Origin: an uncultured Planctomycetales bacterium
GTDB lineage: Bacteria > Omnitrophota > Gorgyraeia > Gygaellales > Profunditerraquicolaceae
Assembly: GCA_964487475.1 (NCBI GenBank)
Contig: CAZAPM010000001.1
Location: 12,374-76,373 of the forward strand
Reading direction: 5' to 3'
DNA: 64,000 nt
Shown one piece after another: positions 5,408 through 28,937 of this stretch. Made by a program: the position numbers and the translations under genes. The notes beneath the pieces are model-generated. The model made no database searches, had not been told where the DNA came from, and was given only the letters and a program-made list of their open reading frames with translations. Position 1 is the first letter of the stretch. Each line of letters starts with the position of its first letter.

Positions 5408-5731
5408 ATGGGTTTTGATGAGCTGAGGAATACCCTTAAAGAAGTGGTCACCGAAACGATCCGCATGGATTGCGATAACCTTTACGAGGCCGTGGTGGCG
5501 AAAGAACATCTGTCGCCGCTTACACAGAGGCTGCAGCGTTTTTTCGGGGCTCCGGCCTGGCCTTCCAAAGTCGCGTTATCCGCCGCGGTACAGGAAGCGA
5601 TCCGTTCCTACGGGGGAGTAATGCCCGGGCAGACGCTGTATTTTTTGCAGCGTGAGGGGAATACCTTCTTCGCCATGCTTTGGCCGTGGCAGGACGGTCA
5701 GCGCACGACCCTCAAGGTGGTGCGGCAATGA
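5408..5731 (+). CDS. hypothetical protein
   Basis: AGAGGAG RBS before the ATG. Coding-like codon usage. No recognisable family. Confidence 0.4.
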   Translation: MGFDELRNTLKEVVTETIRMDCDNLYEAVVAKEHLSPLTQRLQRFFGAPAWPSKVALSAAVQEAIRSYGGVMPGQTLYFLQREGNTFFAMLWPWQDGQRTTLKVVRQ

Positions 5732-6177
5732 AATATTCCTCCGGGTCTGTCGGCAGGGTGTTCGTGGTGAAGTTCGACGACCACGACGTGCTCCTGGACA
5801 GTCTTAAGGCGTTAGCGCGCAAGGAACGTCTCCGTTGCGCCACCTTCCTCTTCATCGGAGCGCTGCGTAAGGGGGTGATGGCCGCGGGTCCCAGGAAGCC
5901 GGTGATCCCTCCTTCGCCCAATATGCGTTCCTTCAAGGACGGTTGGGAAGTGCTGGGAGTGGGTACTCTTTTTCCCGGCAAGGACGGGCCGCAGCTGCAT
6001 GTGCACGGCTCCATGGGCAAGGCCCGCGCGGTGATGACCGGGTGCGTGCGCGGCGCGTCTTCGGTGTTCCTGGTGGTGGAAGCGGTGGTCTTCGAGCTCA
6101 AAGGCGTCAAAGCCCGCAAGGAGATCGATCCTGCCACGGGGCTGAACCTGCTTAAGATCATTTCAGGAGGGGAGTAA
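5728..6177 (+). CDS. PPC/DUF296 domain-containing protein
   Basis: Start trimmed to the ATG overlapping the upstream stop. GRVFVVKFDDHDVLLDSLKAL...LHVHGSMG...VFLVVEAVVFEL matches the PPC (DUF296) fold pattern. Confidence 0.5.
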   Translation: MKYSSGSVGRVFVVKFDDHDVLLDSLKALARKERLRCATFLFIGALRKGVMAAGPRKPVIPPSPNMRSFKDGWEVLGVGTLFPGKDGPQLHVHGSMGKARAVMTGCVRGASSVFLVVEAVVFELKGVKARKEIDPATGLNLLKIISGGE

Positions 6178-6560: not shown

Positions 6561-6950
6561 ATGCATCTAAGGTACTGCGGCCCCGATCGGAGGCGCTTCC
6601 AGCGTCTTAACGTCAACCTTTCAGTGTTTTTCAAGATCCTTACCCCCTTGGACGTGCGGCAGGCGTACGGGGAAAGGGAGCGCGAAGCTTCGATGCTCGA
6701 TATCTCGGGAGCGGGGTGCGCGCTGATGACTTCGTGCGATATCCCCAGGTTCAGCATCATTTCCCTGCGTTTCTACGTGTTCAAGACCGATTCCCGCGGT
6801 ATGGTGAGCTTTTCCGATCCCGTGGAAGTGGTGGCGGAAGTGCGTTCGGTAGTGCCCTTGGATAACGGGGAGTACCGCATCGGCGTATGCTTCCAGGAGA
6901 TCAAGCAATCCAACCAGACCCTGGTCGAGGAGTTCATTACCGCCAACTGA
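6561..6950 (+). CDS. PilZ domain-containing protein
   Basis: RRRFQR (RxxxR) motif and DISGAGCAL (DxSxxG) motif. Confidence 0.65.
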   Translation: MHLRYCGPDRRRFQRLNVNLSVFFKILTPLDVRQAYGEREREASMLDISGAGCALMTSCDIPRFSIISLRFYVFKTDSRGMVSFSDPVEVVAEVRSVVPLDNGEYRIGVCFQEIKQSNQTLVEEFITAN

Positions 6951-7193: not shown

Positions 7194-7775
7194 ATGACCG
7201 TTAAATCGCTGAAGGGGTCCCGGACCGAAAAGAATCTGCTGGCTGCGTTCGCCGGGGAATCGCAGGCCCGTAACCGTTACACCTATTTTGCCAGCGCCGC
7301 CCGCAAGGAGGGGTTTGAGCAGATCGCAAATATTTTCACCGAGACCGCGGAGAACGAGAAGGAGCATGCCAAGATATTCTTCAAGCATCTGGAGGGCGGG
7401 GAGGTGGAGATCACGGCCATGTATCCCGCGGGGATGATCAAGGACACCTGTTCCAACCTCGAGGCGGCTGCCGCAGGGGAGAAACTCGAGTGGACCTCGC
7501 TTTACCAGGATTTCGCCAAGATCGCCAAAGAGGAAGGGTTTGCCGACGTGGCCCGTTCCTTCGAGCAGGTGGCCAAGGTGGAGAAATTCCACGAGGCCCG
7601 TTACCGCAAGCTTATCGAGAACGTATCCGGCGCGAAGGTGTTCCGGAAACCCGGCGCGGTCAAATGGCATTGTATTAACTGCGGGTATGTCAGCGAAGGG
7701 GCGGATGCGCCCGCCGCGTGCCCCGCCTGCAAGCACCCGCAGTCCTTCTTCGAGGTGTTGGCGGAGAATTTCTAA
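7194..7775 (+). CDS. rbr: rubrerythrin
   Basis: Ferritin-like di-iron domain (EKNLLAAFAGESQARNRYTYFA...ENEKEHAKIFF...EARY) plus a C-terminal rubredoxin-like CINCGY...CPACKHP. Confidence 0.9.
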   Translation: MTVKSLKGSRTEKNLLAAFAGESQARNRYTYFASAARKEGFEQIANIFTETAENEKEHAKIFFKHLEGGEVEITAMYPAGMIKDTCSNLEAAAAGEKLEWTSLYQDFAKIAKEEGFADVARSFEQVAKVEKFHEARYRKLIENVSGAKVFRKPGAVKWHCINCGYVSEGADAPAACPACKHPQSFFEVLAENF

Positions 7776-7842: not shown

Positions 7843-8814
7843 ATGCTTAAGATCGGGAGTTTAAAATTGCGCGTACCCCTTATCCTGGCTCCTATGGCCG
7901 GGGTAAGCGACCTGCCGTTTCGGCTGCTGAACCGGAGGTTCGGATGCTGTTTTGCCTTCACCGAGATGATCAATGTCCGTTCCCTGGGGCATAAGAGCCG
8001 CAAGACCGGGGAACTCCTCGCTACGGTCCCCGAGGACGCTCCGCTGGGCCTGCAGCTTTTGGCCGGGGAGGAGCAGTATCTCCTGAAGGCGATCGAAGTG
8101 GTGCAGCAGAAGTTCAAATTCGCGCTGATCGATTTCAATGCCGCCTGCCCCGCGAAGAAGGTGGTACGCCGCGGGGAAGGGGCAGCCCTGATGAAGGACC
8201 CTGCGCGGCTGGAACGGCTGGTCGGGATACTGGCGAAAAGTTTCAAGGTGCCGGTGACGGTGAAGATCCGTGCCGGGTGGGACCGGACGCATCTTAATGC
8301 CCCGGAAGTCGCCCGGCGGTGCGAGGATGCCGGGGTAAAAGCGGTCTTTGTGCACGGGCGGACCAAGCTCCAGGAGTACAGCGGCAAGGTGGATTATGAG
8401 GTGATCGCCCAGGTAAAAAAAGCGGTCAGGGTGCCGGTCATCGGGAGCGGGGACGTGCTTTCCCCGGAGCTGGCCGGGAAGATGCTGGATTCCACCGGGT
8501 GCGACGGAGTGCTGGTGGCCCGCGGCTCCTTCGGAAACCCCTGGATATTCTCCCAGACCGAGCATTATCTTGCGCATCGTTCCCTGCCGGAGCCTCCGGC
8601 GCACTCCGAGGTGCTGGCGGTGATGCGGGATCACCTGGATTCATGCATCGCGTTCTACGGGCCGAGGGTGGCGGTGACTATTTACCGGAAGTTCTTTGCC
8701 TGGTATACCAAGGGCATGCGCGGAGCCAGGCCTTTACGGGAAAAAGCCAATACGGTGCGCACGGCGGAGGGGCTGCGCGCGGTCATTGACGAATGCCGGG
8801 TGAGCCATATATAA
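7843..8814 (+). CDS. dus: tRNA-dihydrouridine synthase (DusB-like)
   Basis: LILAPMAGVSDLPFR..., FTEMI and the TIM-barrel Dus family pattern throughout. Confidence 0.85.
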   Translation: MLKIGSLKLRVPLILAPMAGVSDLPFRLLNRRFGCCFAFTEMINVRSLGHKSRKTGELLATVPEDAPLGLQLLAGEEQYLLKAIEVVQQKFKFALIDFNAACPAKKVVRRGEGAALMKDPARLERLVGILAKSFKVPVTVKIRAGWDRTHLNAPEVARRCEDAGVKAVFVHGRTKLQEYSGKVDYEVIAQVKKAVRVPVIGSGDVLSPELAGKMLDSTGCDGVLVARGSFGNPWIFSQTEHYLAHRSLPEPPAHSEVLAVMRDHLDSCIAFYGPRVAVTIYRKFFAWYTKGMRGARPLREKANTVRTAEGLRAVIDECRVSHI

Positions 8815-8821
8815 TAGAACC

Positions 8822-9916
8822 ATGGGATGTGTCGCGGTAACCGGAGTCGGGGTGGTAGCTTCTAACGCGATCGGCCGTGTCCGATACGGCGATGCGCTTA
8901 TTGCGGAAGAGAGCGGCATCAAGCCGGTCACCCTTTTCGATACCGCGTGTTTTAAAGCCAAGGCCGCCGGTGAGGTCAAGGATTTCGATCCCGCCTCTTT
9001 CCTGGGGCCTAAGGGGCTGCGCACGCTCGACCGCAGCACCAAGCTGCTCGCGGTCGCGGCCAAGCTGGCGCTCGAGGATGCCGGTATCATTATCACCGAT
9101 GAGAATTCCGCCGGCATGGGTATGGTCACGGGAACCACCATGGGCAGTATCCGCAGTATCAGCGAATTCGACCGGGAATCCCTGGTCGAGGGCCCCCAAT
9201 ACGTCAATCCCGCGTTGTTCCCCAACACCGTCATCAATTCCCCTTCCAGCCAGGTTTCCATAAGATTCCGCATCCGCGGGCTCAATACTACTATCTCTAC
9301 CGGGTTCACCGCCAGTGCGGATGCGGTCGGGTATGCGCTGGACGCGTTAGGCAACGGAAAGGCCAGGACCGTGCTGGCGGCCGGGGTGGAAGAGCTCTGT
9401 CCGGAGATATTCTGGGCGCTGGAAAAAACCCGTTTCTCAGCGGTGTTCGGGGAAGGAGCGTGTGTACTGGTGCTCGAGGATCCCCGGGATGCCGCGGCAG
9501 CGGGGCGGGTGCCGTTGGCCTATATCCGGGGATATGGCGCGGGGTTCGAACCTTACCGTACGGATAAGATCAAGGCGGGTGCGCCCGGACTGCGCCGCGC
9601 CATGCGGGCGGCGCTGGCGGCGGCAGGATGCGGCAGCGAAGATATCGATTGTATCGTGTCGGCGGCGAATTCCATCCGCGAAGCGGACCAGGCGGAAGCG
9701 GGCGCGATCCGGGAGGTCTTCGGCGAAAGCGCGCGCCAGGTGCCGGTGACCGCGTACAAATCCCTGATCGGAGAGTGTATGAGCGCCTGGGGAGCCCTCG
9801 GGATCGCCGCCGCGGTGGAGATGCTGCGCCGGGGCCAGAGGCGCAACATCCTGGTCAATGCGTTAGGCCCTACGGGGTGCAGCAGCAGCGTGATAGTGTC
9901 GGCGAAAGGAATCTAA
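8822..9916 (+). CDS. beta-ketoacyl synthase-like protein lacking catalytic Cys/His/His (chain-length-factor-like partner)
   Basis: KS fold from end to end. The active-site Cys is replaced (TISTGFTAS instead of T-A-C-x-x-G) and both catalytic His motifs are absent (SAANS and IGEC instead of HGTGT and GHxxGAAG). Confidence 0.7.
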   Translation: MGCVAVTGVGVVASNAIGRVRYGDALIAEESGIKPVTLFDTACFKAKAAGEVKDFDPASFLGPKGLRTLDRSTKLLAVAAKLALEDAGIIITDENSAGMGMVTGTTMGSIRSISEFDRESLVEGPQYVNPALFPNTVINSPSSQVSIRFRIRGLNTTISTGFTASADAVGYALDALGNGKARTVLAAGVEELCPEIFWALEKTRFSAVFGEGACVLVLEDPRDAAAAGRVPLAYIRGYGAGFEPYRTDKIKAGAPGLRRAMRAALAAAGCGSEDIDCIVSAANSIREADQAEAGAIREVFGESARQVPVTAYKSLIGECMSAWGALGIAAAVEMLRRGQRRNILVNALGPTGCSSSVIVSAKGI

Positions 9917-9918
9917 CC

Positions 9919-10668
9919 ATGGAATTTTCCGGGAAGCATGTGCTGGTCACGGGAGGCACGCGGGGGATCGGCCGGGCGATCGCGGTGATGTTCGCTTCCC
10001 AGGGAGCGAATGTCGCGTTCACCTACGCGCTCAGCACGGTGCAGGCGCAGGAGGTGCTGGAGGTGCTGTGCAGCCACGGGGTCAAAGCCCTGGCGATCCA
10101 GGCGGATGTCAGGGATTTTTCGGCATCGAAGGAGGCGATCGAGCGGGTCAAGGGCGAGTTCGGGGGGCTGGATATCCTGGTGAACAACGCCGGGGTCACC
10201 CGGGATAAGGCGTTGATGATGATGTCCCCGGAGGAGTGGGAAGAGGTCATGGATACCAACCTCCAGGGTACGTTCAATTTCTGCCGCAACGCCATCATCA
10301 CCTTCCTCAAGCAGAAGAGCGGGTGCATCATCAACCTGACTTCGGTCAGCGGGATGATCGGGATGTCCCGCCAGACCAATTATGCCGCCTCCAAGGCGGG
10401 GATCATCGGATTCACCCGTTCCCTGGCGCGGGAAGTGGGAGGGTACGGGATCCGGGTCAATGCCGTGGCTCCCGGGTTCGTGGAGACGGACATGGTCGCA
10501 CATCTTAAAGAGCAGTTCACCCAGGCGATGAAGCAGGCGATACCGCTGGGCCGTTTCGGGACTTCGGGCGAGGTGGCGGCCGTGGTGCGGTTCCTGGCAA
10601 GCGAAGAGGCACGGTTCATTACCGGCCAGACGCTGGTGGTCGACGGCGGATTGTCGCTGGCGCTGTAA
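9919..10668 (+). CDS. 3-oxoacyl-ACP reductase-like SDR (FabG paralog)
   Basis: Start trimmed to MEFSGKHVLVTGG, 2 nt after the upstream stop. TGGTRGIG Rossmann motif, NNAG, and the S...YxxxK triad (YAASKAG). Confidence 0.8.
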   Translation: MEFSGKHVLVTGGTRGIGRAIAVMFASQGANVAFTYALSTVQAQEVLEVLCSHGVKALAIQADVRDFSASKEAIERVKGEFGGLDILVNNAGVTRDKALMMMSPEEWEEVMDTNLQGTFNFCRNAIITFLKQKSGCIINLTSVSGMIGMSRQTNYAASKAGIIGFTRSLAREVGGYGIRVNAVAPGFVETDMVAHLKEQFTQAMKQAIPLGRFGTSGEVAAVVRFLASEEARFITGQTLVVDGGLSLAL

Positions 10669-10676
10669 AGGAGCGG

Positions 10677-11120
10677 ATGATGCACATCGACGAGATTCTT
10701 TCTATTCTGCCGCAACGTTACCCGTTCGTGATGATAGACCGGGTGCTGGAGTTGGAGCCGGGAGTAAGGATCCTCGCGGCCAAGAACGTGAGCACGAACG
10801 AGGATTATTTCCGGGGACATTTCCCGGAGCGGCCGGTGATGCCCGGAGTGCTGATGCTGGAGGCTTTGGCGCAGGCGTCCATCGTATTGTTCTACGCTTC
10901 CAAGCCGGGGGTGCAGAGTTCGCAGAGTCCGCAGACGCTGTATTATCTCGTATCGGTCAAGGTGCGGTTCCTGGCACCGGTGTTCCCCGGAGATCAGCTG
11001 TTGCTGGAGGTCAAGCCTTTGAAGATGGTTCCGGATGCGGGGATAGTGGAGGTTTCCGCAAGAGTAGGGGAGATCGAAGTGGCGCGTGGCGAGATGAGCT
11101 TTGCGGCGAGGCAGGGATAA
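10677..11120 (+). CDS. 3-hydroxyacyl-ACP dehydratase (FabZ-like)
   Basis: The hotdog-fold FabZ signature HFPERPVMPGVLMLEALAQ is present. Confidence 0.85.
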   Translation: MMHIDEILSILPQRYPFVMIDRVLELEPGVRILAAKNVSTNEDYFRGHFPERPVMPGVLMLEALAQASIVLFYASKPGVQSSQSPQTLYYLVSVKVRFLAPVFPGDQLLLEVKPLKMVPDAGIVEVSARVGEIEVARGEMSFAARQG

Positions 11121-12335
11121 ATGGAGCGCGTGCGGGTAGTGGTCAGCGGCATCGGGGTGGTTTCTTCCGTGGGCACCGGACGCGCAGCGTTCTGGGAGGC
11201 TTTGGAAAAGGGCGCGTGCGGCACGTCCCGCATCGAATCATTCGACACCTCCAATTTCCCCACCCATTTCGGAGGGGAGGTCAAGGATTTCTCCCCGCAG
11301 CGTTTCATCCCGAGGCAGCGGCTTTCCCGGATGGGCCGGGCCTCGCAGCTTTCCCTGGCTGCGGCGCACCTTGCGGCCGACGATGCCGGGGTATCGCGGG
11401 CCGCGCTGGATGCCGCCAACTGCGGGGTGTGCCTGGGCACGACCATGGGGGAATCCCAGGTGCTGGAGCGGCTCAATGAGATCTGGGTCAGCCGCGGCCA
11501 GGAGCACATGGAAAGCGGGATGATGCTGCAGTATCCCTGCAATATGCTGGCGGCGAACGTCGCGATCGGGTTCAAACTTAAAGGCCCGCATTTCGTGATC
11601 CCTACCGCCTGTGCCGCGGGGAACTATGCCATCGGATATGCCTTCGACAAGATCCGTTCGGGTGAGGCGGAGATGATGTTCGCCGGAGGGGCGGATGCGT
11701 TCTCCAAGATCGCGTTCGTGGGGTTCAACCGTCTGTATGCGGTCGCGCCGGAAAAGGTGCAGCCTTTTGACCGTAACCGGAAAGGCATGATGGTGGGGGA
11801 AGGGGCGGGTGTGCTCCTCCTGGAGTCGTGGGAGAGCTGCCGGAAACGCAAGCGCATTCCCTATGCCGAAGTGGCGGGATACGGGTTAAGTTGCGATGCG
11901 CATCATATGACCGCGCCGCAAAGCGACGGGATCGCCGCAGCGATCGAGAAAGCGATCGCGGAGTCGGGGGTGTCCAAGGATGAAGTGGGATACTTTAACG
12001 CGCATGGCACCGGCACTCCGGCCAACGATAAGGAAGAGTGCCTGGCGTTGCAGAAAGTGTTCGGCGAGAGGCTGGCATCCCTGCCGGTAAGCTCCATTAA
12101 ATCGATGCTGGGGCACACCATGGGAGCGGCATCCGCGATCGAGGCTATCGCCTGCTGTTTTGCCCTGACCGAAGGTCTGATCCCTCCCACGATCAATTTC
12201 GAGACTCCCGACCCGGAGTGTCCGATAGATTGCGTGCCAAATCACGCCCGAAAAGCGAGGGTGGAAGTGGCGGTGAACAGCTCCTCCGCCTTCGGCGGGA
12301 ACAATGCCTGTCTCGTCCTGAAAGCGGCCAGATAG
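11121..12335 (+). CDS. beta-ketoacyl-ACP synthase (KAS I/II-like, catalytically intact)
   Basis: Active-site Cys (PTACAAGNYAIG) and both His motifs (HGTGTPANDKEE, GHTMGAASAIEA). Begins 1 nt after the FabZ-like stop. Confidence 0.85.
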   Translation: MERVRVVVSGIGVVSSVGTGRAAFWEALEKGACGTSRIESFDTSNFPTHFGGEVKDFSPQRFIPRQRLSRMGRASQLSLAAAHLAADDAGVSRAALDAANCGVCLGTTMGESQVLERLNEIWVSRGQEHMESGMMLQYPCNMLAANVAIGFKLKGPHFVIPTACAAGNYAIGYAFDKIRSGEAEMMFAGGADAFSKIAFVGFNRLYAVAPEKVQPFDRNRKGMMVGEGAGVLLLESWESCRKRKRIPYAEVAGYGLSCDAHHMTAPQSDGIAAAIEKAIAESGVSKDEVGYFNAHGTGTPANDKEECLALQKVFGERLASLPVSSIKSMLGHTMGAASAIEAIACCFALTEGLIPPTINFETPDPECPIDCVPNHARKARVEVAVNSSSAFGGNNACLVLKAAR

Positions 12336-12339
12336 ATAT

Positions 12340-12368
12340 TGACATAACCTACGCTTTGGCCTATAGTT
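12340..12368 (+). promoter_or_regulatory. near-consensus sigma70 promoter (TTGACA-17-TATAGT)
   Basis: Perfect -35, 17-bp spacer and a TATAGT -10 in an AT-richer intergenic region upstream of the 12396 gene. Confidence 0.5.
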
Positions 12369-12395: not shown

Positions 12396-12977
12396 ATGAA
12401 GAAATTCCTGCGCGTGTGCATCCTGGCGGCTATAGGTGCTCTTCCCGCATGCGGTTGGGCCTGGGAAGGGAAACCGGCATCTTTGGAATCATGGGGAGTG
12501 CTTGCGGGGTTCGGTACGGCGTCCCTTCGGGAGCAGGGGGCATATCATACCGTGCCCCTTTCAGTCGACTTCGATTTTACCCTTAAGCCTTATCTGAAGG
12601 AGTTCGGTCTTTCCTGGCCGGGGATGGTGCAGATGCAGATCGAGCCGTACCTCGCACCGGTGATCGACCCGCATGCCGGGATCGAACTCGGCAATTATTT
12701 CTTTCTGAAGATCGGCCTTGTGCCCCAGACATGGAAATTCCAGCCTTATGTCAAGGCCGGGCCCGGTGTCTCCTATATGACGGTGCAGACCAGGGAGCAG
12801 GCAACGCAGTTCAATTTCATCGAAGCCGGCGCGGTCGGCGCGCACTTTTTTTTCCGGAAGAACCTGGGGTTGACCGTCGAATGCCGCGCGCGGCATCTTT
12901 CCAACTCCGGTATCGCGCATCCGAACAAAGGGATCAATTCCTATTACGGGATGCTGGGCGTCGCGTATCTGTTCTAA
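12396..12977 (+). CDS. outer-membrane beta-barrel protein, lipid A 3-O-deacylase (PagL)-like
   Basis: Signal peptide. Alternating beta-strand pattern ending in an aromatic residue (GVAYLF). HxSN motif (ARHLSNSG) resembling the PagL His/Ser catalytic pair. Confidence 0.5.
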   Translation: MKKFLRVCILAAIGALPACGWAWEGKPASLESWGVLAGFGTASLREQGAYHTVPLSVDFDFTLKPYLKEFGLSWPGMVQMQIEPYLAPVIDPHAGIELGNYFFLKIGLVPQTWKFQPYVKAGPGVSYMTVQTREQATQFNFIEAGAVGAHFFFRKNLGLTVECRARHLSNSGIAHPNKGINSYYGMLGVAYLF

Positions 12978-13018: not shown

Positions 13019-16000
13019 ATGCCCTTACGTTATCCTTCCCTGAGAAGCCTGATCGTCCTGCTTTCGCTTTGCGCGTGCTGCCTCGGCATTCCCGTGTTCG
13101 TGAGCGCGGCGAACGATATCTTCGTGGCGGCGAATTCCACCTGGAAGTACGATGATACGGGTACGGACCGGGGCACGGCCTGGTTCAACGCCTCGTATGA
13201 TGATTCCGCCTGGCCTTCGGGCGCCGGACAGTTCGGGTACGGTGACGGAGGAGAAAGCACGCTTTTAGGGTATGGCCCCGACGCAAACAACAAATACCCC
13301 ACCTATTATTTCCGCAAGTCGTTCAACGTGGCCAATGCCGCCCTCTATTCTGACCTGATCTTCTCGTTGTTGAGGGATGACGGCGCGGTCGTCTATCTTA
13401 ACGGGGAAGAGATATACCGGGATAATATGCCGGGAGGGGCGGTGGGTTATTCTACCCTTGCTTCCTCTGCGGTCGCCGGCGCCGCCGAATCCACGTATTA
13501 CGTCTTTCCCTCCATCCCTACGAACCTGGTCTCCGGGACCAACGTGCTGGCAGTGGAGGTCCATCAGAACGTCGTTACCAGCAGCGACCTGAGTTTTGAT
13601 TTCAAGCTCGAGGGCACGCTCGGGGAGGTGAACGTGAGCGCGTATACCACCGGGACTCCGTCGCTGCCTCCGGCATCGATCACTCCCGGCAACGGCAGGG
13701 CCCTGGCGACCTTCCGCTTGACGGGAGCCGGCCCGCTGACCGGGATCATCGTTTCCGAATACGGGACCGTGGACGCGGATACGGATCTCACGTCGGTGAA
13801 GCTTTATTCCGATGACGGCGATGGGAACTGGGAACCGGCTTCGGATACCGTGCAGTTGGGCAGCACCACTTCGTTCTCTTCGCAAGCCGCATCCTTCAGC
13901 GGGTTTACGCTCATCGCCGGAAGCACGACGTACGTGCATGTGGTGGCGGATGTGCAGAATTCCGTAGCTGACGGCGAAACGGTCGGGCTGCGCATCGTCC
14001 AGGCCAGCGACGTGACGACGGCGTTCCCCGTGTCTGCGAGCTCCTGGCCGGTGTCGGCCGGCACTTCGCCGGTGCTGCTGGACGCGATCTCCCTGCAGTC
14101 GTATTCGGGAGGGACCCCGGCTATGCCGCCGGCCACCCTGCCGGCGAACGCCACCCGGCAGTGCCTGTCCACGTTCTATTTCAGCGGCGGGGGCAACCTC
14201 CTGGGGATGAACTTCACCGATTACGGGACCAGCAACGTGACCGCGGACCTTTCCAACGTCACGCTCTATCTGGATGACGGGGACGGGAACTGGGAATCGC
14301 TGCAGGATACCACGGTGCTCGGCGCGGCGACTTCGTTTAACGCAGCCGAGAAAGCGTTCTTTTCCGGGTTCAACGTCACTTTGCCAGAAGATGCCTATGT
14401 GCATGTGGTCGCCGATGTCGCACAGGATATCCTGAAGAACCAGACAGTCAATATCGGGATCAACGCGGCAGGGGATGTCATCGCGTCCGATGACATCGCC
14501 TCGGCATCCTGGCCGTTGCAGGCGGGTGCGTCCAGGTTGATGGGGATCTATCCCTACCTGCAGAACGTGACCACGTCCACCATCAACGTGCTGTGGATCA
14601 CGGACGATGCCTTGAACACCACGTTGGAGTACGGTCTTACCTCTTCGTACGGCACTACGGTTACCGACGCTTCTGGAGTGACGCTGCACAGCGTCAATCT
14701 TACCGGATTGCAGACGGACACCAAATATTACTATCGCGTAAGGTCGGGGGATATGGTCAGCCGGGCCGCTTCCTTCAAGACCGCGCCTGCTTCGACCAGC
14801 GGGTTCACTTTTCTGGCGTACGGGGACAGCCAGGGGACCGGCACGGGCTCCGGCTACAATACCCTGCACGAGTCGGTGGTCAACGCCACGCTGCCGTACG
14901 CGAACAATACCATCGTCCTGCGGATGGGGGACCAGGTCTTTGCGGAATCCATCGATGAGTGGGAGCCGAAGTTCTTCCTGCCGGGACGCAACCTTTACAG
15001 CAATAATACCGCGTACCCGGCGCGCGGCAACCATGAGGAGGGGGCGGCATTGCTGCAGCAGTACTTCGCGCCTCCGGCAGTGGGCGGGTCCGGCAGCGAG
15101 CGGTACTACTCCTTCAATTACGGCAATACGCACTTCGTCTGTCTGGATACCAATCAGGCGCATAATTCCGGCAGCGCGCAGTATACCTGGCTGGTATCCG
15201 ACCTCGATTCCGCGGCCGCCACGTCCGCTACCTGGATCGTGGTGTGGTTCCACCATCCCGGGTTATCCTCCTACCGGGAGGATGCCGTGGTCAAGAGCGA
15301 TCTCCTGCCCTTGTTCGAGAGCAAGGGAGTGGATATCGTGTTCAACGGGCACAACCATTTTTATGAACGTCATAATAAGGACGGGGTTTACCATGTGACG
15401 TGCGCGGGAGGCGGCAACACGCTTTATGCCACGGATGACTCCGCCACTACCGCGTACCGGGAGAATTACCGCAGTACCCTGCATTTCCTGAAAGTCGAGA
15501 CGGGCGCTTCCCAGATGCAGGTGACCGCGTACGATACGAGCGGCGCGGCATTCGATTCTTTCGTGGTGCCCCGGAGCACGACGGTCTCCGCATACGGCTC
15601 CGGCACTCCGGCGGCGCCGCCCGCCAGCGTCGCCGCGGGCTCGGCGGCCAACTGCCTGGGGACGTTCCTTTTCGGGTCCGGTGGGACAGTCTCTGCCGTC
15701 ACCCTGACCGAGTACGGTACCGCAAACGCCGCCGCCGACCTTTTGAACGTAAAACTTTTCCTCGATGACGGAGACGGGAACTGGGAACCGGCGCAGGATA
15801 CGACCCAGCTGGGCGCGACCACGGTGTTCGATGGTTCCTCCCAGGCTTCCTTTTCCGGATTTTCCCTGGCTGCCGGCCCGACATCGTACGTGCATGCGGT
15901 CGCGGACGTTTCCGCATCCATTTCTTCCGGTGTTACTATCGGCGTCGAATTGCTGCAGGCTTCCCATGTGACCTCTACCGCGACGGTCCAGGCTGCGGCC

Positions 16001-19000
16001 TGGCCGGTGCAGCTGGGTACGACCAGTCCTTCGGCCGGGACCATCGATACGCCTGCCGCCGCCAGCGTGGTGGGTCCTTCCCCCACCATCACCGGTACGG
16101 CTGCTGCCGGATCTGCCGTGACCCTGCAGGACGGAGGGGGCACTCCCCTTGGCAGTACCACTGCGGACGATAACGGGAATTTCCGCCTGGCGGTGACCGC
16201 TCCTTTAGGGGCGGGCGCCCGGACCCTGCGGCTTTTCGTGAACGGAGTGGAGAAGGCCTCCGTCAATGTCGTGGTCGATCTTTCCCCCGATGCTGACGAG
16301 CAGCCGGTGATCACTTCTCCGGCGGATGGTGACACGGTAAGGGGAAAGCGCCCGGTGATCTCCGGCATGGCGACGCCCGGCGCGCTGGTCACGCTGACCG
16401 CGCTGGACGTCAACGGCAACCTGACGACGATGGGCACTGCCACCGCCGATGCTTCCACCGGCGCGTTCGCCATCACTCCTTCAAGCGACGTGCCGGCAGG
16501 CGCGAACCAGCTGACAGTGACCTGCAACGGCGTCACCAGCACGGTCATCGACGTGATCTTTACCGATCCTTTCGGCGTGGTGTTCGATTCCCTGAGCAAC
16601 GCCCCCATTGCCGGCGCCCGGGTCACGATCTATTACGACAGCGATCCCGGGGCAGGCCGGACGTGGATCCAGGCGGTGCCGGGAGTGCATATCGCAGGCG
16701 GCGACCTTAACCCGCAGACCACCAATGCCGCCGGCCAGTACAGTTTCCTGACCATTGACGGCGATTTCTACATCAGCATCACCGCTCCCGGATATACGTA
16801 CCCTTCGGTGCGCACGTCATTCCCCGCCGGCCGCGTCATCGTCAACGGGTCCAAGGGAGAGATCTTTACCGTAGCCGGGGTGGTCATCGAGATGGACCAC
16901 CCCATGGACCCGGGAAGCGCGCTGCTTAAGGTGCGCAAGGACGCGAACAAGAAGGAAGCGCACGTCGGCGATATCGTCACCTATACGGTGGAGGTGGAGA
17001 ATCCCACCGCGTCCGCCGCCGCGGGAGTATATCTCGAGGACCGCATCCCTCCGGGGTTCAAGTACATCGGTGGCAAATCCTTGCTGGACGGGGCGCAGGC
17101 GCCTGATCCGCAGGGCACTTCTATCCTGACCTTTTCCGTAGGCACCGTGCCGGCGCTGTCCAAGCGCACGCTTAAATATCAGCTGGTCGTGGGCGCGGGG
17201 GTGAGCTTCGGGAAATACGAGAACCATGCCCACGCCAAGTACCTGGACGGCACCACTGTGTCCAACGTCGCGGATGAGACGGTCAAGGTCGTCCCTGACG
17301 CGCTTTTCGATATGGGCACGGTGATCGGCAAGGCGTTCTATGATACCGACGGTAACGGGATGCAGGATAAGGGCGAACCCGTCGCTCCCTATGCCCGCAT
17401 CGCCATGGAGGACGGCACGCTCATCACTGCCGACGCGGAAGGCAAGTTCCACGCGGCCGGCATACTTCCCGGCAGGCATGTGTTCAAGATCGACCCGGCC
17501 AGTCTTCCTCCCGGGACGGCAGCGCAGGAAGGCGCTCCGGTGATCGTGGATATCACCCCCGGGATCATGGCCAAAGTGAATTTCCCGCTGCAGGGAACAC
17601 CTGCGGGGGACCTGTGGCGCATCGACCGCGGGATCCCGAAGCCCCGCTTGAGCGTGGGGATCTACCAGGATGCCGTGGTGTACCGTAAAGGCGCTCCGGC
17701 TGAGCAGCATGTCTTCCGGGTGTTCACCAATTATCCCGCGTTCATCGAGCGCTGGCAGCTCGATATCCGCGATACGCACACCGGCGCGCTGGTCCGCAGG
17801 CTGGAGGGCCCGGGAGACGATTTGCAGCGGCCGCTCCCCTGGAACGGCCTGGATTCTTCCGGCAGGATGCTGCGCAGCGACAGGGAGTACACCTATCAGC
17901 TGGCGGTGTTCGGCGCATCGGGAGAGAGGGATGTGACCGGGGCCAAGGCCCTGCGGGTGATGGAGCAGGAAGGCCCGCAGACCGCCGATGCCCGGGTCGA
18001 CCTGGATTCCTTCATGGTCGAAGCGAAAAAACGCAAGGAGTACTTCTCCCGGGTCGCTTCCGCCAGCAGTCTTTCCGAGCAGCGCATCCCGCTTCCGGGC
18101 GAGGCCTTGACGGTCCGCGTTCCGCATGCGGCCGATGCGCAGGTGTACGTCGGCGGGTTCTCCGGCCGGGAGCTGACGCTGGAGGCTTCCGAGGGGGTGG
18201 CCGAGACCATCCTGCCCAAGGGTGTATACCAGGTCTCTTCCGGGGATGCGCAGCCGCAGGTGATAAGCGTGGGTGACGACCCCTTCTTCTTTGTGGCCAT
18301 GGGAGACGGGAAGGTCGGATATAATTTCAACCGCGGGCACGTGGAGCCCATCGAACGCAATGACGCCTACCAGAAAGGATTCTGGAAAGAGGGCCGGGTG
18401 GCGTACTACCTCAAGGGTAAGGTCAAGGGCAAGTACCTGATCACCTCCAGCCTGGATACGGCACGGCAGCAAAAGGAGCTTTTCAAGTCGCTCGACCCCA
18501 ACAAGTATTATCCCGTGTACGGAGACGCTTCGAGCACCAGTTACGCGGCGGCGGATACCCAGGGCCCGTTGTACCTGCTGGTGGAGTGGGATAAGTCCTC
18601 TGCGGTCTGGGGGAATTACCACACCCGGATCGACCGTACCGAGTTTGCGCGGTTCGACCGCACCCTCTACGGAGGGAAGGTCGATTACGAATCTACGGCC
18701 ACCACCAAATTCCAGGAGCCGGTGACCAGGGCGGTCGGGTTCCGGGCCACTGCCAAACAGCGCGCCGGCCACAACGAGTTCCTGGGCACCGGAGGTTCCT
18801 TGTATTATCTTAAGCACCGCGGAGTGATAGAGGGGTCGGATAAGGTGCGTATCGAAGTGCGCGATTCCGTGACCGGCCTGGCGGTTTCCAGCCGGCAGGC
18901 GGTGAGCGGCAGCGATTACCGCATCGATTATGCCCAGGGCCGGATCGTCTTCGAGAAGCCCGTGCAGATGCTGGCCGCTTCCAACGCCCTGATCTCTTCC

Positions 19001-21085
19001 CGGTTGTCGGCGGGGGATGCGGTGTACGTGGTGGCGGATTACGAGTATGAGACCAAGGACAAGTACGATCAGACCACGCACGGAGGAAGTCTCCAGCAGG
19101 CGCTGGGGGACCATCTGCAGGTGGGAGCGACCTATGTCAAGGAAGCGCAGCTGAACCGCAACTACGTATTGAAGGGAAGCGACGCCACCGTGCACCTGGG
19201 GGAGAGGAGCCGTATCACGGCGGAGTATGCGGAATCGGAATCGGAGGCGGCAGGGAATTTCGTTTCCACCGACGGAGGGTTGAGCTTCAGCGAGCTGGCG
19301 GTCGCCGACCGGGATAACGGCAGGGCCTACGGGATCAAAGGGTACGCCCAGGTGCTCGATACGCTGGGAGTGAGCGGGTATTATAAGCTGATCGAAAAGG
19401 GCTTTTCCTCGTCCGCGGTCCTGGCGCAGCAGGGCAAAGAACTTGCCGGTGCGGAAGCGGCCTGGGATATCGATCCCCGTACCCGCCTGCTCCTGCGCCA
19501 TGACGTGCAGAAGCTCAAGCCCGAAGCTAATCTTCAGGCGAAGGCGCAGGTGGGGGCCCAGGAGACTTCGACCAGTTCCGTGCAGGTCACCAGACAGGTG
19601 GATGCGCGGCTGAAGGTAAGCGCCGAAGCCCAGCATCAGGAGGTGGCGCAGCGCGATGCCTCGTATGAGTCCGAGACGAACAGGGAGGGCAGCGCCGCGG
19701 CGGTGCGGGCGGATTATAAGGTCACGGAGACCCTGGATGTGTTCCTCAAACAGCAGGAGCAGCTCAAGGGAAAAGCCGACCACCGAACCACGGTGGGAGC
19801 GCAAAAACAGGTCTCCCCGAATACCCGGGTGCGCGCGGCGCAGACGGTAGGTAACCGGGGTACCGCGTCAAGCGTCGGCACTACCTCCCGGATCAGGGAG
19901 GCGCTGGAAGTGTCCGCCGATTACGAGCACCAGCAGTACCGGGCAGGGGATATCCGGGATACGGCGTCGGTGGGCACCCGGCTCCAGGCCGATCCCCGCA
20001 CCGAAGTGCGCACCTCCTATGCGCTGGAGAGCTCCGCGCTGGAGGGGGACCTGCAATCCCTGACCGTGGGGTCGCGGCGCAAGGTCAACGACCGCATCGC
20101 GGTCAAGAGCGACCGCACCTTCTCCACCGGCCGCCACCGGACCGTCACTTCCTCGCTGTACGGGCTGGAGCGGGAACAGGACGGCCTCTTCCAGGAGGCG
20201 TCCTTCGAGACCCAGGAATCCTTCGGGAATACGGGAGAGTACCGCAGCAACATCGCTTCGGTCTCGGGGTCCCTCAGCGAGAAAGTCTCCGCCGGGGTGA
20301 GTTTTGAGAAGGGAAAGATCCAGAATCTTGACGGGAGCCAGCAGCAGCGGTATGCCGCTTCTACCGGCGTGACGTATCTGGAAAAGGACCCCCGGACCCA
20401 GGAGACGGATTTTAAGACGGCGCTGAAGGCGGAGGTGCGTCTGGACCGCGGGGATACCGATACCCGCCAGTATCTCGCGGGAGCGCATGTGGAAAAGAGG
20501 GTGACCAGGGACCATACCGTGTTCCTCAAATCCGAATACTCGACTTCCCGTAACACCACGGGGGATTATTCCCTGGCCCAGTATAAGGAGTTCGTGGCGG
20601 GGTTCAGTTACCGCCCGGTGGATTTCGACAGGTTCAATTTCCTGGGGAAATATACCTATCTAATCAACGACGGACACCTGGGCCAGGAGGATTACCGGGA
20701 CGTGCTCAAGGAAAGGGCGCAGGTCTGGGCCGGGGAAGCGGTGTATGACCTCACTCCGCAATGGCAGATCACGGAAAAGCTGGCGATCCGGCAGGCGCAG
20801 GAGATGGTCCGGGGGTTCGATTTCACCAAATCCACCACCTGGCTTATGGTGCACCGTTTGAGTTATACCGTGGCCAAGGTCTGGCGGTTCGGGATCGAGT
20901 ACCGCCGGCTTTCCCAGGACCAGGCGGACGATTGCCGGCAGGGGATCCTGGCCGAGATCGCCCGCAAGATCGACAAATGCATCGAGATGGGGATTGGGTA
21001 CAACTTCACCGATTTCAACGATGACCTCGCCCACCTGGATTATACCAGCCAGGGACCCTTTGTGCGCGTGACCGGAGGCTTCTAA
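13019..21085 (+). CDS. giant secreted multidomain surface protein (2688 aa): jelly-roll N-domain, 3x ~145-aa Ig-like repeats, purple-acid-phosphatase-like metallophosphoesterase, DUF11, SdrD-B-like domain, C-terminal predicted beta-barrel
   Basis: The signal peptide is MPLRYPSLRSLIVLLSLCACCLGIPVFVSA. Metallophosphatase motifs GDSQG, GDQV, GNHE and GHNHFYER are present. A DUF11-like segment reads HVGDIVTYTVEVEN and an SdrD-B-like segment reads FYDTDGNGMQDKGEP. The C-terminal ~900 aa has an amphipathic Y/R/D/T-rich pattern and ends in an aromatic residue (TGGF). Confidence 0.7.
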   Translation: MPLRYPSLRSLIVLLSLCACCLGIPVFVSAANDIFVAANSTWKYDDTGTDRGTAWFNASYDDSAWPSGAGQFGYGDGGESTLLGYGPDANNKYPTYYFRKSFNVANAALYSDLIFSLLRDDGAVVYLNGEEIYRDNMPGGAVGYSTLASSAVAGAAESTYYVFPSIPTNLVSGTNVLAVEVHQNVVTSSDLSFDFKLEGTLGEVNVSAYTTGTPSLPPASITPGNGRALATFRLTGAGPLTGIIVSEYGTVDADTDLTSVKLYSDDGDGNWEPASDTVQLGSTTSFSSQAASFSGFTLIAGSTTYVHVVADVQNSVADGETVGLRIVQASDVTTAFPVSASSWPVSAGTSPVLLDAISLQSYSGGTPAMPPATLPANATRQCLSTFYFSGGGNLLGMNFTDYGTSNVTADLSNVTLYLDDGDGNWESLQDTTVLGAATSFNAAEKAFFSGFNVTLPEDAYVHVVADVAQDILKNQTVNIGINAAGDVIASDDIASASWPLQAGASRLMGIYPYLQNVTTSTINVLWITDDALNTTLEYGLTSSYGTTVTDASGVTLHSVNLTGLQTDTKYYYRVRSGDMVSRAASFKTAPASTSGFTFLAYGDSQGTGTGSGYNTLHESVVNATLPYANNTIVLRMGDQVFAESIDEWEPKFFLPGRNLYSNNTAYPARGNHEEGAALLQQYFAPPAVGGSGSERYYSFNYGNTHFVCLDTNQAHNSGSAQYTWLVSDLDSAAATSATWIVVWFHHPGLSSYREDAVVKSDLLPLFESKGVDIVFNGHNHFYERHNKDGVYHVTCAGGGNTLYATDDSATTAYRENYRSTLHFLKVETGASQMQVTAYDTSGAAFDSFVVPRSTTVSAYGSGTPAAPPASVAAGSAANCLGTFLFGSGGTVSAVTLTEYGTANAAADLLNVKLFLDDGDGNWEPAQDTTQLGATTVFDGSSQASFSGFSLAAGPTSYVHAVADVSASISSGVTIGVELLQASHVTSTATVQAAAWPVQLGTTSPSAGTIDTPAAASVVGPSPTITGTAAAGSAVTLQDGGGTPLGSTTADDNGNFRLAVTAPLGAGARTLRLFVNGVEKASVNVVVDLSPDADEQPVITSPADGDTVRGKRPVISGMATPGALVTLTALDVNGNLTTMGTATADASTGAFAITPSSDVPAGANQLTVTCNGVTSTVIDVIFTDPFGVVFDSLSNAPIAGARVTIYYDSDPGAGRTWIQAVPGVHIAGGDLNPQTTNAAGQYSFLTIDGDFYISITAPGYTYPSVRTSFPAGRVIVNGSKGEIFTVAGVVIEMDHPMDPGSALLKVRKDANKKEAHVGDIVTYTVEVENPTASAAAGVYLEDRIPPGFKYIGGKSLLDGAQAPDPQGTSILTFSVGTVPALSKRTLKYQLVVGAGVSFGKYENHAHAKYLDGTTVSNVADETVKVVPDALFDMGTVIGKAFYDTDGNGMQDKGEPVAPYARIAMEDGTLITADAEGKFHAAGILPGRHVFKIDPASLPPGTAAQEGAPVIVDITPGIMAKVNFPLQGTPAGDLWRIDRGIPKPRLSVGIYQDAVVYRKGAPAEQHVFRVFTNYPAFIERWQLDIRDTHTGALVRRLEGPGDDLQRPLPWNGLDSSGRMLRSDREYTYQLAVFGASGERDVTGAKALRVMEQEGPQTADARVDLDSFMVEAKKRKEYFSRVASASSLSEQRIPLPGEALTVRVPHAADAQVYVGGFSGRELTLEASEGVAETILPKGVYQVSSGDAQPQVISVGDDPFFFVAMGDGKVGYNFNRGHVEPIERNDAYQKGFWKEGRVAYYLKGKVKGKYLITSSLDTARQQKELFKSLDPNKYYPVYGDASSTSYAAADTQGPLYLLVEWDKSSAVWGNYHTRIDRTEFARFDRTLYGGKVDYESTATTKFQEPVTRAVGFRATAKQRAGHNEFLGTGGSLYYLKHRGVIEGSDKVRIEVRDSVTGLAVSSRQAVSGSDYRIDYAQGRIVFEKPVQMLAASNALISSRLSAGDAVYVVADYEYETKDKYDQTTHGGSLQQALGDHLQVGATYVKEAQLNRNYVLKGSDATVHLGERSRITAEYAESESEAAGNFVSTDGGLSFSELAVADRDNGRAYGIKGYAQVLDTLGVSGYYKLIEKGFSSSAVLAQQGKELAGAEAAWDIDPRTRLLLRHDVQKLKPEANLQAKAQVGAQETSTSSVQVTRQVDARLKVSAEAQHQEVAQRDASYESETNREGSAAAVRADYKVTETLDVFLKQQEQLKGKADHRTTVGAQKQVSPNTRVRAAQTVGNRGTASSVGTTSRIREALEVSADYEHQQYRAGDIRDTASVGTRLQADPRTEVRTSYALESSALEGDLQSLTVGSRRKVNDRIAVKSDRTFSTGRHRTVTSSLYGLEREQDGLFQEASFETQESFGNTGEYRSNIASVSGSLSEKVSAGVSFEKGKIQNLDGSQQQRYAASTGVTYLEKDPRTQETDFKTALKAEVRLDRGDTDTRQYLAGAHVEKRVTRDHTVFLKSEYSTSRNTTGDYSLAQYKEFVAGFSYRPVDFDRFNFLGKYTYLINDGHLGQEDYRDVLKERAQVWAGEAVYDLTPQWQITEKLAIRQAQEMVRGFDFTKSTTWLMVHRLSYTVAKVWRFGIEYRRLSQDQADDCRQGILAEIARKIDKCIEMGIGYNFTDFNDDLAHLDYTSQGPFVRVTGGF
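13636..14070 (+). repeat. intragenic repeat unit 1 (~145 aa Ig-like module) of giant protein
   Basis: SAYTTGTPSLPP...LYSDDGDGNWEPASDT...YVHVVADV...SWPVSAGTS. Approximate boundaries. Confidence 0.5.
14098..14535 (+). repeat. intragenic repeat unit 2
   Basis: GGTPAMPPATLP...LYLDDGDGNWESLQDT...YVHVVADV...SWPLQAGAS. Diverged copy of unit 1. Confidence 0.5.
15587..16030 (+). repeat. intragenic repeat unit 3
   Basis: SAYGSGTPAAPP...LFLDDGDGNWEPAQDT...YVHAVADV...AWPVQLGTTS. Third diverged copy, located after the phosphatase domain. Confidence 0.5.
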
Positions 21086-25988: not shown

Positions 25989-25996
25989 GATAACCC

Positions 25997-28604: not shown

Positions 28605-28622
28605 CCCTAAAGGAGGAAAAGA

Positions 28623-28859
28623 ATGGCAGTACAAGATAAGGTGAAGTCGATCATCGCGGAGCAGTTGGGCGTCAAGCCGGAAGAGGTCACCCCGGAAGCT
28701 TCTTTCATCGATGATCTGGGTGCGGATTCCCTGGATACGGTCGAGTTGGTCATGGCGCTGGAAGAGGAGTTCGGCATCGAGATACCTGATGAGGACGCCG
28801 AGAAGATCACGTCTGTCGGTGATGCCATCAAGTACATCGAGGAGAAATCCGGTAAATAA
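28623..28859 (+). CDS. acpP: acyl carrier protein
   Basis: [19 protein letters not shown] phosphopantetheine-attachment motif (DSL). Confidence 0.95.
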
Positions 28860-28891
28860 GCAGAGATAACGTCGTCTTAACATACATTCTA

Positions 28892-28928
28892 CCCCGCCGG
28901 CGCAGTTTTTGGCGGGGTAAATTTTATA
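28892..28928 (+). terminator. putative terminator hairpin after acpP
   Basis: CCCCGCC...GGCGGGG 7-bp stem with a T-rich loop and an A/T-rich tail. Weaker than the others. Confidence 0.35.
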
Positions 28929-28937
28929 GGTCAAGCC

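Follow-up and report, generated by a model that had tools for sequence, protein, structure and literature searches.

We analysed a 64-kb stretch of DNA of Omnitrophota origin (contig CAZAPM010000001.1), called the window below; all coordinates are window positions, and all genes of the block under study are on the + strand. Positions 8822-12335 hold four genes, KSb-KR-DH-KSa, encoding a dead ketosynthase (KS)-fold protein, a ketoreductase (KR), a dehydratase (DH) and an intact ketosynthase. We propose, with a probability of roughly 0.6, that they form a self-contained transcription unit and are the Omnitrophota counterpart of the fatty acid synthesis (FAS)-like half of the anammox "Cluster I". 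An earlier sequence-only reading had described the block as an active KS with a dead partner of the chain-length factor (CLF) type, served by its own KR and DH, set apart from housekeeping FAS and devoid of a carrier of its own. This core is now supported by the kinship of both KS proteins with a pair of anammox enzymes, amxFabF2 and amxFabFmut.

PDB entries 9S5H and 9S5I are the amxFabF2/amxFabFmut heterodimer of Brocadia fulgida, from the putative ladderane "Cluster I" (May 2026 preprint, bioRxiv 10.64898/2026.05.19.726425). According to the same preprint, each protein is inactive alone; the two co-purify and are active only as a KS/CLF-like heterodimer, which decarboxylates malonyl-ACP (ACP, acyl carrier protein) and yields acetoacetyl-ACP. 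The pair cross-links faster with a C8 than with a C16 probe and favours C6-C8 probes, a preference adjusted through Phe135 and Val139 in the dead partner, and was called there the first chain-length factor in a fatty-acid pathway.

Anatomy of the block

Five open reading frames (ORFs) were found on the + strand across positions 7843-12335, exactly where the sequence-only reading had placed them and as tightly packed as it had said, the gaps between dusB, KSb, KR, DH and KSa being in turn 7, 2, 8 and 0 nt. These ORFs, and two further features to which the text returns, are the following.

7843-8814, + strand: dusB, tRNA dihydrouridine synthase (TIGR00737, 341 bits, above cut-off); upstream syntenic neighbour
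8786-8815, + strand: promoter-like site, TTGACG, 18 nt, TATAAT (11 of 12 consensus matches), within the last dusB codons
8822-9916, + strand: KSb, dead ketosynthase-fold protein of 364 amino acids (aa); Pfam ketoacyl-synt N and C domains
9919-10668, + strand: KR, FabG-type 3-oxoacyl-ACP reductase of 249 aa (TIGR01830, 305 bits, cut-off 298; Pfam adh_short_C2)
10677-11120, + strand: DH, amxFabZ-type 3-hydroxyacyl-ACP dehydratase of 147 aa (Pfam FabA; NCBIfam FabZ PRK00006, 144 bits, cut-off 113)
11121-12335, + strand: KSa, intact ketosynthase of 404 aa; Pfam ketoacyl-synt N and C domains
28623-28859, + strand: acpP, housekeeping acyl carrier protein, the sole ACP of the window

Purine runs resembling ribosome-binding sites precede KR, DH and KSa, and promoter-like sites lie on both flanks of the block. 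The canonical plsX-fabH-fabD-fabG-acpP-fabF set, which had been said to be present separately and to be far diverged from the block, is indeed found at 24987-30185, 13 kb downstream; KSa is 40% identical to the FabF encoded there, KSb 28% to the same FabF, and KR 44% to FabG. KSa and KR are thus extra copies. For DH the statement that the block is not housekeeping FAS is likely but unproven: the 64 kb show no FabZ besides it, and DH may therefore have a housekeeping role.

A dead ketosynthase related to amxFabFmut

KSb had been reported to lack the catalytic Cys, His and His, with TISTGFTAS, SAANS and IGEC in place of the active-site motifs. All three strings were found in its translation, and the loss withstood realignment: relative to E. 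coli FabF, Cys163 is replaced in KSb by Phe (ISTGF), His303 by Ala (SAANS), His340 by Glu (GEC) and the gate Phe400 by Pro; Lys335 is retained, and no catalytic Cys is present. This state is a family trait. Among 86 KSb relatives, Phe163 was present in 82 and Glu340 in 82, Lys335 was invariant, and Gln163 never occurred. The database search returned many relatives, 42-57% identical and mostly labelled Omnitrophota, whose aligned members carry STGF, (A)ANS and GE(C/S/T) instead of the catalytic motifs and share conserved blocks that include LRTLDRSTKL and YVNPxxFPNTVINSPASQ. They fall into two length classes; the KSb of the window belongs to the short one (about 356-373 aa), which lacks two loops and is also present in complete clusters (loci L017, L051 and L075 of the survey reported below). 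The database gene call of KSb (P0001, 354 aa) begins 10 codons after the ATG at 8822, and the family alignment favours 8822.

The profile of the KSb family scored 530 bits against PDB 9s5h_C (amxFabFmut), versus 343 bits against the best FabF. In a neighbour-joining (NJ) tree of 42 sequences, KSb and amxFabFmut were grouped in a clade with a bootstrap of 100/100. Among the 60 best PDB matches of the profile no CLF chain of a polyketide synthase (PKS) was present, all of them being active KS or FabF proteins except amxFabFmut itself. Pairwise identity between KSb and amxFabFmut is 37-39%, and the short KSb of the window taken alone gave 217-242 bits by BLAST. A motif FPNTV, invariant in 18/18 aligned KSb sequences, carries F133 and V137, the equivalents of Phe135 and Val139 of amxFabFmut, where it reads DFPNTVLN. 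On these sequence grounds we assign KSb as the orthologue of amxFabFmut and, by analogy, presume that it acts as the CLF-like partner of KSa. When homologues of amxFabFmut were searched for directly, the top 120 matches were all from anammox bacteria, a result that cannot rank its nearest relatives outside this group.

An AlphaFold2 monomer model of KSb (predicted template modelling score 0.86) has the FabF/KS fold, and Foldseek against the PDB matched it to B. subtilis FabF with a template modelling score of 0.88; no 9S5H chain was among the matches listed, and the comparison confirms only a FabF-like fold. The sole stretch of very low confidence (pLDDT, the per-residue confidence score, <50) is a helix-loop-helix at residues 107-138. 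The same helix-loop-helix is disordered in the crystal of the amxFabFmut homodimer (bioRxiv 10.64898/2026.05.19.726425), and the parallel, suggestive only, hints at a heterodimer. Net-charge counts on the helix-loop-helix and on its partner helix were tried as a proxy for the published electrostatic asymmetry; they were uninformative, as the proxy fails on the anammox pair itself.

An intact ketosynthase related to amxFabF2

KSa was announced as a complete, active KAS, and all five expected residues are intact: Cys, His, Lys, His and Phe, that is the catalytic triad, Lys335 and the gate Phe. It scored 471 bits against PDB 9s5h_B (amxFabF2), 357 against Iga11 (6kxd_A) and about 316 against FabF, with identities of 52% to amxFabF2, 47% to Iga11 and 40% to the FabF of the window. 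The clade of KSa and amxFabF2 obtained 93/100 in the NJ bootstrap (42 sequences), and Iga11 was sister to it at 98/100. The KSa and KSb of the window occupy matching subclades in their respective trees. KSa is therefore classed, from its sequence, as the orthologue of amxFabF2, and is presumed to be the catalytic subunit of a heterodimer, by analogy with the anammox pair.

The reductase and the dehydratase

The best PDB matches of KR are ordinary FabG proteins. A KR follows KSb in 66 of the 80 loci surveyed, and we regard the window KR as a second, FabG-type copy dedicated to the block.

DH bears a more specific mark. Its top PDB matches are amxFabZ entries 8ayb and 7qv0, at 131 bits versus 112 for canonical FabZ, and its identity to Brocadiaceae amxFabZ is 47%. 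What sets amxFabZ apart is the substitution of Ile69 for the Gly of canonical FabZ, a change that restricts the enzyme to short chains, up to C6-C8 (PMC10139942). Position 69 was located in DH by means of the I69G mutant entry 8ayc; the window enzyme has both the catalytic His48 and the tunnel-narrowing Ile69, in the context EALAQAS-I69-VLF. By motif counts among the relatives, Ile is found at this position in most loci that contain KSa (type A, see below), and Cys or Ala in those of type B.

Carrier protein and missing partners

The block was said to encode no ACP, thioesterase or acyltransferase. None was found, nor any enoyl reductase (ER) or release enzyme, and the gene after KSa is of the PagL family. 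Down to E = 1, tblastn returned no ACP except acpP in the 64 kb of the window, and at the site where relatives have an ACP gene, the KR-DH gap amounts to 8 nt only. No homologue of the anammox PDH, itself related to phytoene dehydrogenase, and no B12 radical S-adenosylmethionine (SAM) enzyme of the anammox type is present in the window either. Also absent from it are lipB, lpdA and any gene for a lipoyl domain, and the scanned parts contained no recognisable bio gene.

A dedicated carrier of the amxACP type, absent from the window, is encoded in 20 of the 21 loci that have KSa and extend at least 3 kb downstream. Since neither the window nor L088, one of its distant relatives, has the ACP or any of the accessory genes, the likely carrier for the block is the housekeeping AcpP, judging solely from what is absent.

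Layouts among the relatives

A pattern scan, using one genome per species, confirmed KSb relatives at 332 places, and 80 loci were kept for mapping. The labels of most place them in Omnitrophota, as with the complete genome of Ca. Velamenicoccus archaeovorus, or in Nitrospirota/Thermodesulfovibrionia; the "Planctomycetales" labels borne by some loci come from the automated naming of metagenome-assembled genomes (MAGs), and these loci were treated as Omnitrophota-like. Three layouts were distinguished: KSb-KR-ACP-DH-KSa (type A), KSb-KR-DH only (type B), and a Nitrospirota form, methyltransferase-(KR)-KSb-DH-KSa-ACP-CrtI-like. KSa was present in 21 of the 44 non-redundant loci having at least 3 kb of downstream sequence. 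These 21 include the 20 with an ACP gene, and a flavoenzyme of the CrtI/CrtISO family was found in 16/21, while the remaining 23/44 had no KSa, no ACP and no CrtI-like gene. The best PDB matches of the relatives' ACPs were amxACP (35-41% identity), and their CrtI-like proteins were 27-37% identical to the anammox PDH. In the anammox locus L089 the order is amxACP-amxFabZ-amxFabF2-amxFabFmut-PDH-B12 radical SAM; amxFabF2 is called there (8724-9949, chromosome CP064969.1 of Brocadiaceae B188) as two pieces of 340 and 61 aa, because of either a frameshift or a misassembly in this record. Neither the window nor the surroundings of any cluster surveyed showed a close homologue of the anammox B12 radical-SAM enzyme, the only matches being generic ones of 20-26%, several kb away. 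A gene of about 485 aa located between dus and recG in L051 (6147-7601) and L075 (6127-7602) is 21-26% identical to that enzyme; it does not adjoin the cluster and is too distant to be an orthologue.

The accessory genes vary with the lineage. In the clade of the window they are an alpha/beta hydrolase and a CrtI-like gene. In another clade, genes for FAR- or AAR-like reductases follow the cluster and mdh-lpdA-lipB-(lipoyl-domain protein)-HTH precedes it. This upstream order, in full mdh-lpdA-lipB-(91-aa lipoyl-domain protein)-HTH_17, directly precedes the cluster in 13 loci (L002, L009, L010, L012, L014, L019, L020, L021, L026, L027, L028, L046 and L054), among them Ca. Velamenicoccus archaeovorus; across clades, LipB is only 35-56% identical in these loci, and several of them have a FAR- or AAR-like reductase downstream, where downstream sequence exists. 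The adjacency of lipB may mean that a synthase with a preference for C8 is connected with lipoylation, which depends on octanoyl-ACP.

Type B was recorded in L001, L013, L018, L023, L029, L035-L038, L040, L042, L045, L047, L048, L052, L055, L056, L058, L062, L063, L065, L069-L072, L074, L079, L082 and L085. These loci are always flanked by the riboflavin operon and ligA; their KSb is inactive too, and KSa, ACP and CrtI-like genes are all absent within 10 kb. The Nitrospirota form opens with a protein of about 426 aa, encoded upstream of KSb or KR, in which a PilZ-like domain at the N terminus is joined to a class I SAM methyltransferase (L004, L031, L039, L041, L049, L057, L067, L068, L073, L076 and L083); where downstream sequence exists, these loci usually end in a CrtI-like gene adjoining the ACP.

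The window locus compared with its relatives

In the closest clade the gene order is dus-(x)-recG-[KSb-KR-ACP-DH-KSa]-GNAT-hydrolase-CrtI-like-rsmD-coaD-yceD-rpmF-plsX-fabH, versus dus-[KSb-KR-DH-KSa]-PagL-giant protein-recG-rsmD-coaD-yceD-rpmF-plsX in the window. From this difference, the block has shifted relative to recG, and the ACP, hydrolase and CrtI-like genes have been lost. The nearest relative is L088, which is distant in sequence and yet reads dus-KSb-KR-DH-KSa-giant-protein, again without ACP; its proteins are 57% (KSb, full-length in L088), 65% (KR), 64% (DH) and 73% (KSa) identical to those of the window. Of the columns conserved at 95% or more in the family, the window keeps 96% in KSa, 98% in KR, 100% in DH and 88% in KSb. 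This retention of 88-100%, the identical layout of L088 at 57-73% identity, and the conservation of the promoter-like site argue together that the ACP-less layout is a maintained state, not decay.

The -10 box of the site at 8786-8815 ends 7 nt before the KSb ATG, and no Shine-Dalgarno sequence precedes the ATG at 8822. The geometry is the same in L088, with TTGAGC, 17 nt, and TATAAT ending 7 nt before the KSb ATG. As a consensus match only, this suggests that the block has its own transcript, possibly leaderless. The sequence-only reading had found co-transcription with dus odd and had suggested that it may reflect an operon fusion. Such co-transcription is not needed, given the promoter-like site and the fact that recG stands between dus and the block in relatives: dus was seen near the block in L006, L017, L051, L053, L080 and L088, usually with recG in between. 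We judge dusB to be a syntenic neighbour with no functional part in the block.

Directly after KSa, at 12396-12977, the window encodes an outer-membrane beta-barrel of the PagL family (lipid A 3-O-deacylase-like), and a near-consensus promoter-like site lies ahead of it at 12339-12367; PagL homologues were also seen near the cluster in L017, L059 and L060. It is followed at 13019-21085 by the gene of a giant protein of 2688 aa with DUF11, purple-acid-phosphatase/Metallophos, bacterial Ig-like and CarboxypepD_reg domains, a homologue of which (55% identical) comes directly after KSa in L088. Upstream of dus, the segment 5408-7775 encodes a 107-aa ORF, a PCC-domain protein (5728-6177), a PilZ protein (6561-6950) and a rubrerythrin (7194-7775), the last being consistent with an anaerobic lifestyle. 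Further away, a 242-aa ORF without Pfam match (40385-41113) lies within an arginine operon of otherwise standard content (argC, argJ, argB, argD, ORF, argF, argG, argH).

A proposed mechanism and the points against it

Gene content, active-site states, orthology, signature residues and the conserved ACP-less layout are established by the present analysis and are the starting points of the mechanism that we propose. KSa and KSb would form a KS/CLF-like heterodimer, which would decarboxylate malonyl-ACP, prime itself and elongate short chains, with Phe133 and Val137 of KSb setting the limit of the acyl tunnel. That the two pair up, prime themselves and prefer short chains is carried over here by homology from the anammox pair. 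The FabG-type KR would reduce every 3-ketoacyl intermediate, and the Ile69 DH would dehydrate short 3-hydroxyacyl chains, up to about C8. Most likely, though this is read only from the absence of other candidates, the housekeeping AcpP would carry the chain, and an acyl or enoyl group of about C6-C8 would be passed on to general lipid metabolism. Enoyl reduction and product release would be performed by enzymes encoded elsewhere.

Several observations weigh against this reading. The anammox heterodimer itself gave no elongation past acetoacetyl-ACP in vitro, and its chain preference is a cross-linking proxy (bioRxiv 10.64898/2026.05.19.726425). The anammox enzymes prefer their own amxACP (bioRxiv 10.64898/2026.05.19.726425), which makes the use of AcpP by the block less obvious. 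By BLAST, the KSb of the window scored 217 bits against Brocadiaceae amxFabFmut, less than the 251 bits of the window FabF against the same protein; because the short KSb loses to FabF in this pairwise comparison, its specific kinship with amxFabFmut rests on the family profile and on the tree. KSb is also the most derived member of its family, with 88% of the conserved columns kept versus a mean of 98% for the others, and with two loop deletions. At least 23 Omnitrophota loci have KSb-KR-DH and no KSa, and for this reason KSb may act beyond its pairing with KSa. Finally, DH is the only FabZ visible in the 64-kb window.

Other explanations of the block

The block could instead be a highly reducing, type II PKS-like polyene synthase, making a conjugated polyenoyl chain for a pigment or for an unsaturated specialised lipid or hydrocarbon, as the ishigamide system does. 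We consider this unlikely, although several facts speak for it: Iga11 of that system is the second-best solved relative of KSa (357 bits, 47%) in a sister clade supported at 98/100, the block has no ER gene, the relatives have a CrtI/CrtISO flavoenzyme and an alpha/beta hydrolase downstream, or FAR/AAR-like reductases, and Rattray et al. tie related clusters to the polyunsaturated hydrocarbons of Desulfotalea. The window and L088, however, have neither the desaturase, hydrolase and reductase genes nor a dedicated ACP, and the tunnels shaped by Ile69 of DH and by the Phe/Val pair of KSb point to short chains. Moreover, the FlxB and ApeI models stayed below threshold, and the anammox orthologues are not known to carry out polyene chemistry.

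The block might also be part of primary FAS, as the source of the cell's chief or sole FabZ and of an additional elongation system, such as an anaerobic branch for unsaturated fatty acids similar in logic to FabA/FabB or FabN/FabO. Such a role would suit its location, which adjoins rsmD-coaD-yceD-rpmF-plsX-fabH in the window's subclade and in Nitrospirota, as well as the fact that KR and DH pass the NCBIfam cut-offs for FabG and FabZ with no other FabZ in the 64 kb, and the occurrence of the KSb-KR-DH form in the housekeeping rib-ligA context. We nevertheless find it improbable. The window has a full fabH-fabD-fabG-acpP-fabF set, the Ile69 that replaces the canonical Gly confines amxFabZ to short chains, accessory genes that vary between lineages are typical of specialised pathways, and anammox bacteria keep a canonical FabF and FabZ besides the amx copies (PMC10139942; bioRxiv 10.64898/2026.05.19.726425).

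A supply of cofactor precursors is a still more doubtful role: octanoyl-ACP for lipoylation, as in mitochondrial FAS, or pimeloyl-ACP for biotin, as proposed for DVU2560-2563. LipB uses octanoyl-ACP, the orthologues of the block enzymes prefer about C8, and the order mdh-lpdA-lipB upstream of KSb-KR-ACP-DH-KSa is kept in 13 loci at 35-56% LipB identity; a dedicated FAS-like biotin module has a precedent (PMC10102598). Against this stand the absence of any lipB, lpdA or lipoyl-domain gene from the window and of any bio gene from its scanned parts, and the FAR/AAR-like reductases with which the 13 lipB loci also end, suggesting an aldehyde or alcohol product. The adjacency of lipB may, besides, be the inherited synteny of one clade.

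That the block is a decaying remnant, a cluster that lost its ACP, hydrolase and CrtI-like gene on the way to pseudogenisation, can practically be set aside: the low retention (88% versus a mean of 98%) and two missing loops of KSb, and the lack of the ACP and accessory genes of relatives, would fit, but all four reading frames are unbroken and closely packed, the conserved columns are kept at 96-100% in KSa, KR and DH, the ACP-less layout recurs at 57-73% identity in L088, where KSb is full-length and the promoter-like site is conserved, and short KSb forms occur in complete clusters.

Broader implications

Machinery of the amxFabF2/amxFabFmut type is not confined to ladderane producers, as its orthologues were found in this survey mostly in Omnitrophota and Thermodesulfovibrionia, with no radical-SAM partner. 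Cluster I has been described as exclusive to ladderane producers, in PMC10139942 and in the preprint (bioRxiv 10.64898/2026.05.19.726425). Because the orthologues occur without the radical-SAM partner, the FAS-like half of Cluster I alone cannot explain ladderane formation, and the search for ladderane-specific chemistry is thereby narrowed. Comparative and biochemical studies of what the heterodimer makes can draw on a wealth of variants found in nature: some have a KR, some lack KSa or the ACP, and others have LipB, FAR, AAR-like reductase or hydrolase genes nearby. To these the window adds a minimal, ACP-less form that raises the question of crosstalk with the housekeeping AcpP.

Tentatively, and with more doubt than confidence, the module of a KS, a dead KS and an Ile69 FabZ could be seen as an older and widespread synthase of short acyl chains (about C8) in anaerobic lineages, to which anammox bacteria would have added the radical-SAM enzyme, whereas the lineage of the window would have shed its private ACP and would run on AcpP. 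If so, the block would be a second initiation and short-chain branch of primary lipid synthesis, and could, for instance, provide octanoyl-ACP to LipB, whose gene neighbours the cluster in 13 loci, or start the synthesis of an unknown class of lipids in Omnitrophota.

Mining of the antiSMASH kind often groups aryl-polyene/flexirubin-like clusters with "ladderane" types. Ladderane-type biosynthetic gene clusters have been reported in Omnitrophota MAGs, without analysis (PMC9902471), and under the reading proposed here such calls should be taken as KS/dead-KS modules, not as ladderane synthesis.

Comparison with known systems

Adjacent genes for an active KS and a dead homologue, the latter shaping the acyl tunnel, are also a feature of the KS-alpha/KS-beta pairs of aromatic type II PKS (actinorhodin, 1TQY). 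The CLF of these enzymes has Gln at the Cys position and primes by decarboxylation. An aromatic-PKS KS/CLF was ruled out for the block: KSb has Phe and not Gln, no cyclase, aromatase or PKS-type ACP is among the neighbours, and 1tqy_A scored 254 bits against the KSb profile, below FabF.

Aryl-polyene (Ape) and flexirubin clusters likewise have an extra KS, a KR and a FabZ-like DH apart from housekeeping FAS, and the sequence-only reading had named pathways of this kind as candidates. Profile searches do not support them: FlxB reached 243 bits for a cut-off of 340, the ApeI-like match (E = 0.0026) was below the gathering score, and no other Ape-type gene was found among the scanned neighbours, where adenylating enzyme, second ACP, thioesterase, Lol-like exporter and glycosyl/acyltransferase genes were absent as well.

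In Deltaproteobacteria, related clusters were reported by Rattray et al., who linked them to polyunsaturated hydrocarbons in Desulfotalea. The Desulfovibrio set DVU2560-DVU2563 resembles the block in being a dedicated group of FabF/FabG/FabZ-like genes in an anaerobe, apart from housekeeping FAS and without its own enoyl reductase (PMC10102598). It differs in having a single KS, with no dead partner reported, and its own ACP, and in lying between bioB/F/D/A (PMC10102598). A pimeloyl/biotin module of this type was rejected for the window, where the architecture differs and no bio gene was found in the scanned parts or among the annotated conserved neighbours.

The ishigamide highly reducing type II PKS (Iga11/Iga12; 6KXD-6KXF) comes nearer. 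It too combines a KS/CLF pair with KR and DH and has no ER, and Iga11 ranks second among the solved relatives of KSa. Unlike the block, it belongs to the secondary metabolism of actinobacteria, includes its own ACP and yields a polyene amide.

The resemblance is greatest with the anammox Cluster I (KustE3605/3606; 9S5H and 9S5I; amxFabZ 7QV0 and 8AYB). The window shares with it an active and a dead KS that fall in the anammox clades and are encoded by neighbouring genes, the tunnel Phe/Val of the dead KS, and His48 and Ile69 of DH; an amxACP-like ACP and a CrtI-like flavoenzyme are shared by the relatives only. The differences are that the host is Omnitrophota and not Planctomycetota, that the block has its own FabG-type KR, and that it lacks the ACP, the PDH homologue and the B12 radical-SAM enzyme. 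At the Cys position the residue is Phe in KSb, against Val or Thr in amxFabFmut, and two loops are missing from KSb. The order is KSb-KR-DH-KSa in the window versus ACP-FabZ-FabF2-FabFmut-PDH-rSAM in anammox bacteria. With agreement at the level of the protein sequences and without the ACP and the PDH/radical-SAM pair, the block is best classified as a variant of the FAS-like half of Cluster I, and not as a ladderane cluster. By these sequence comparisons, that half of Cluster I is the nearest known system, the ishigamide PKS being the next.

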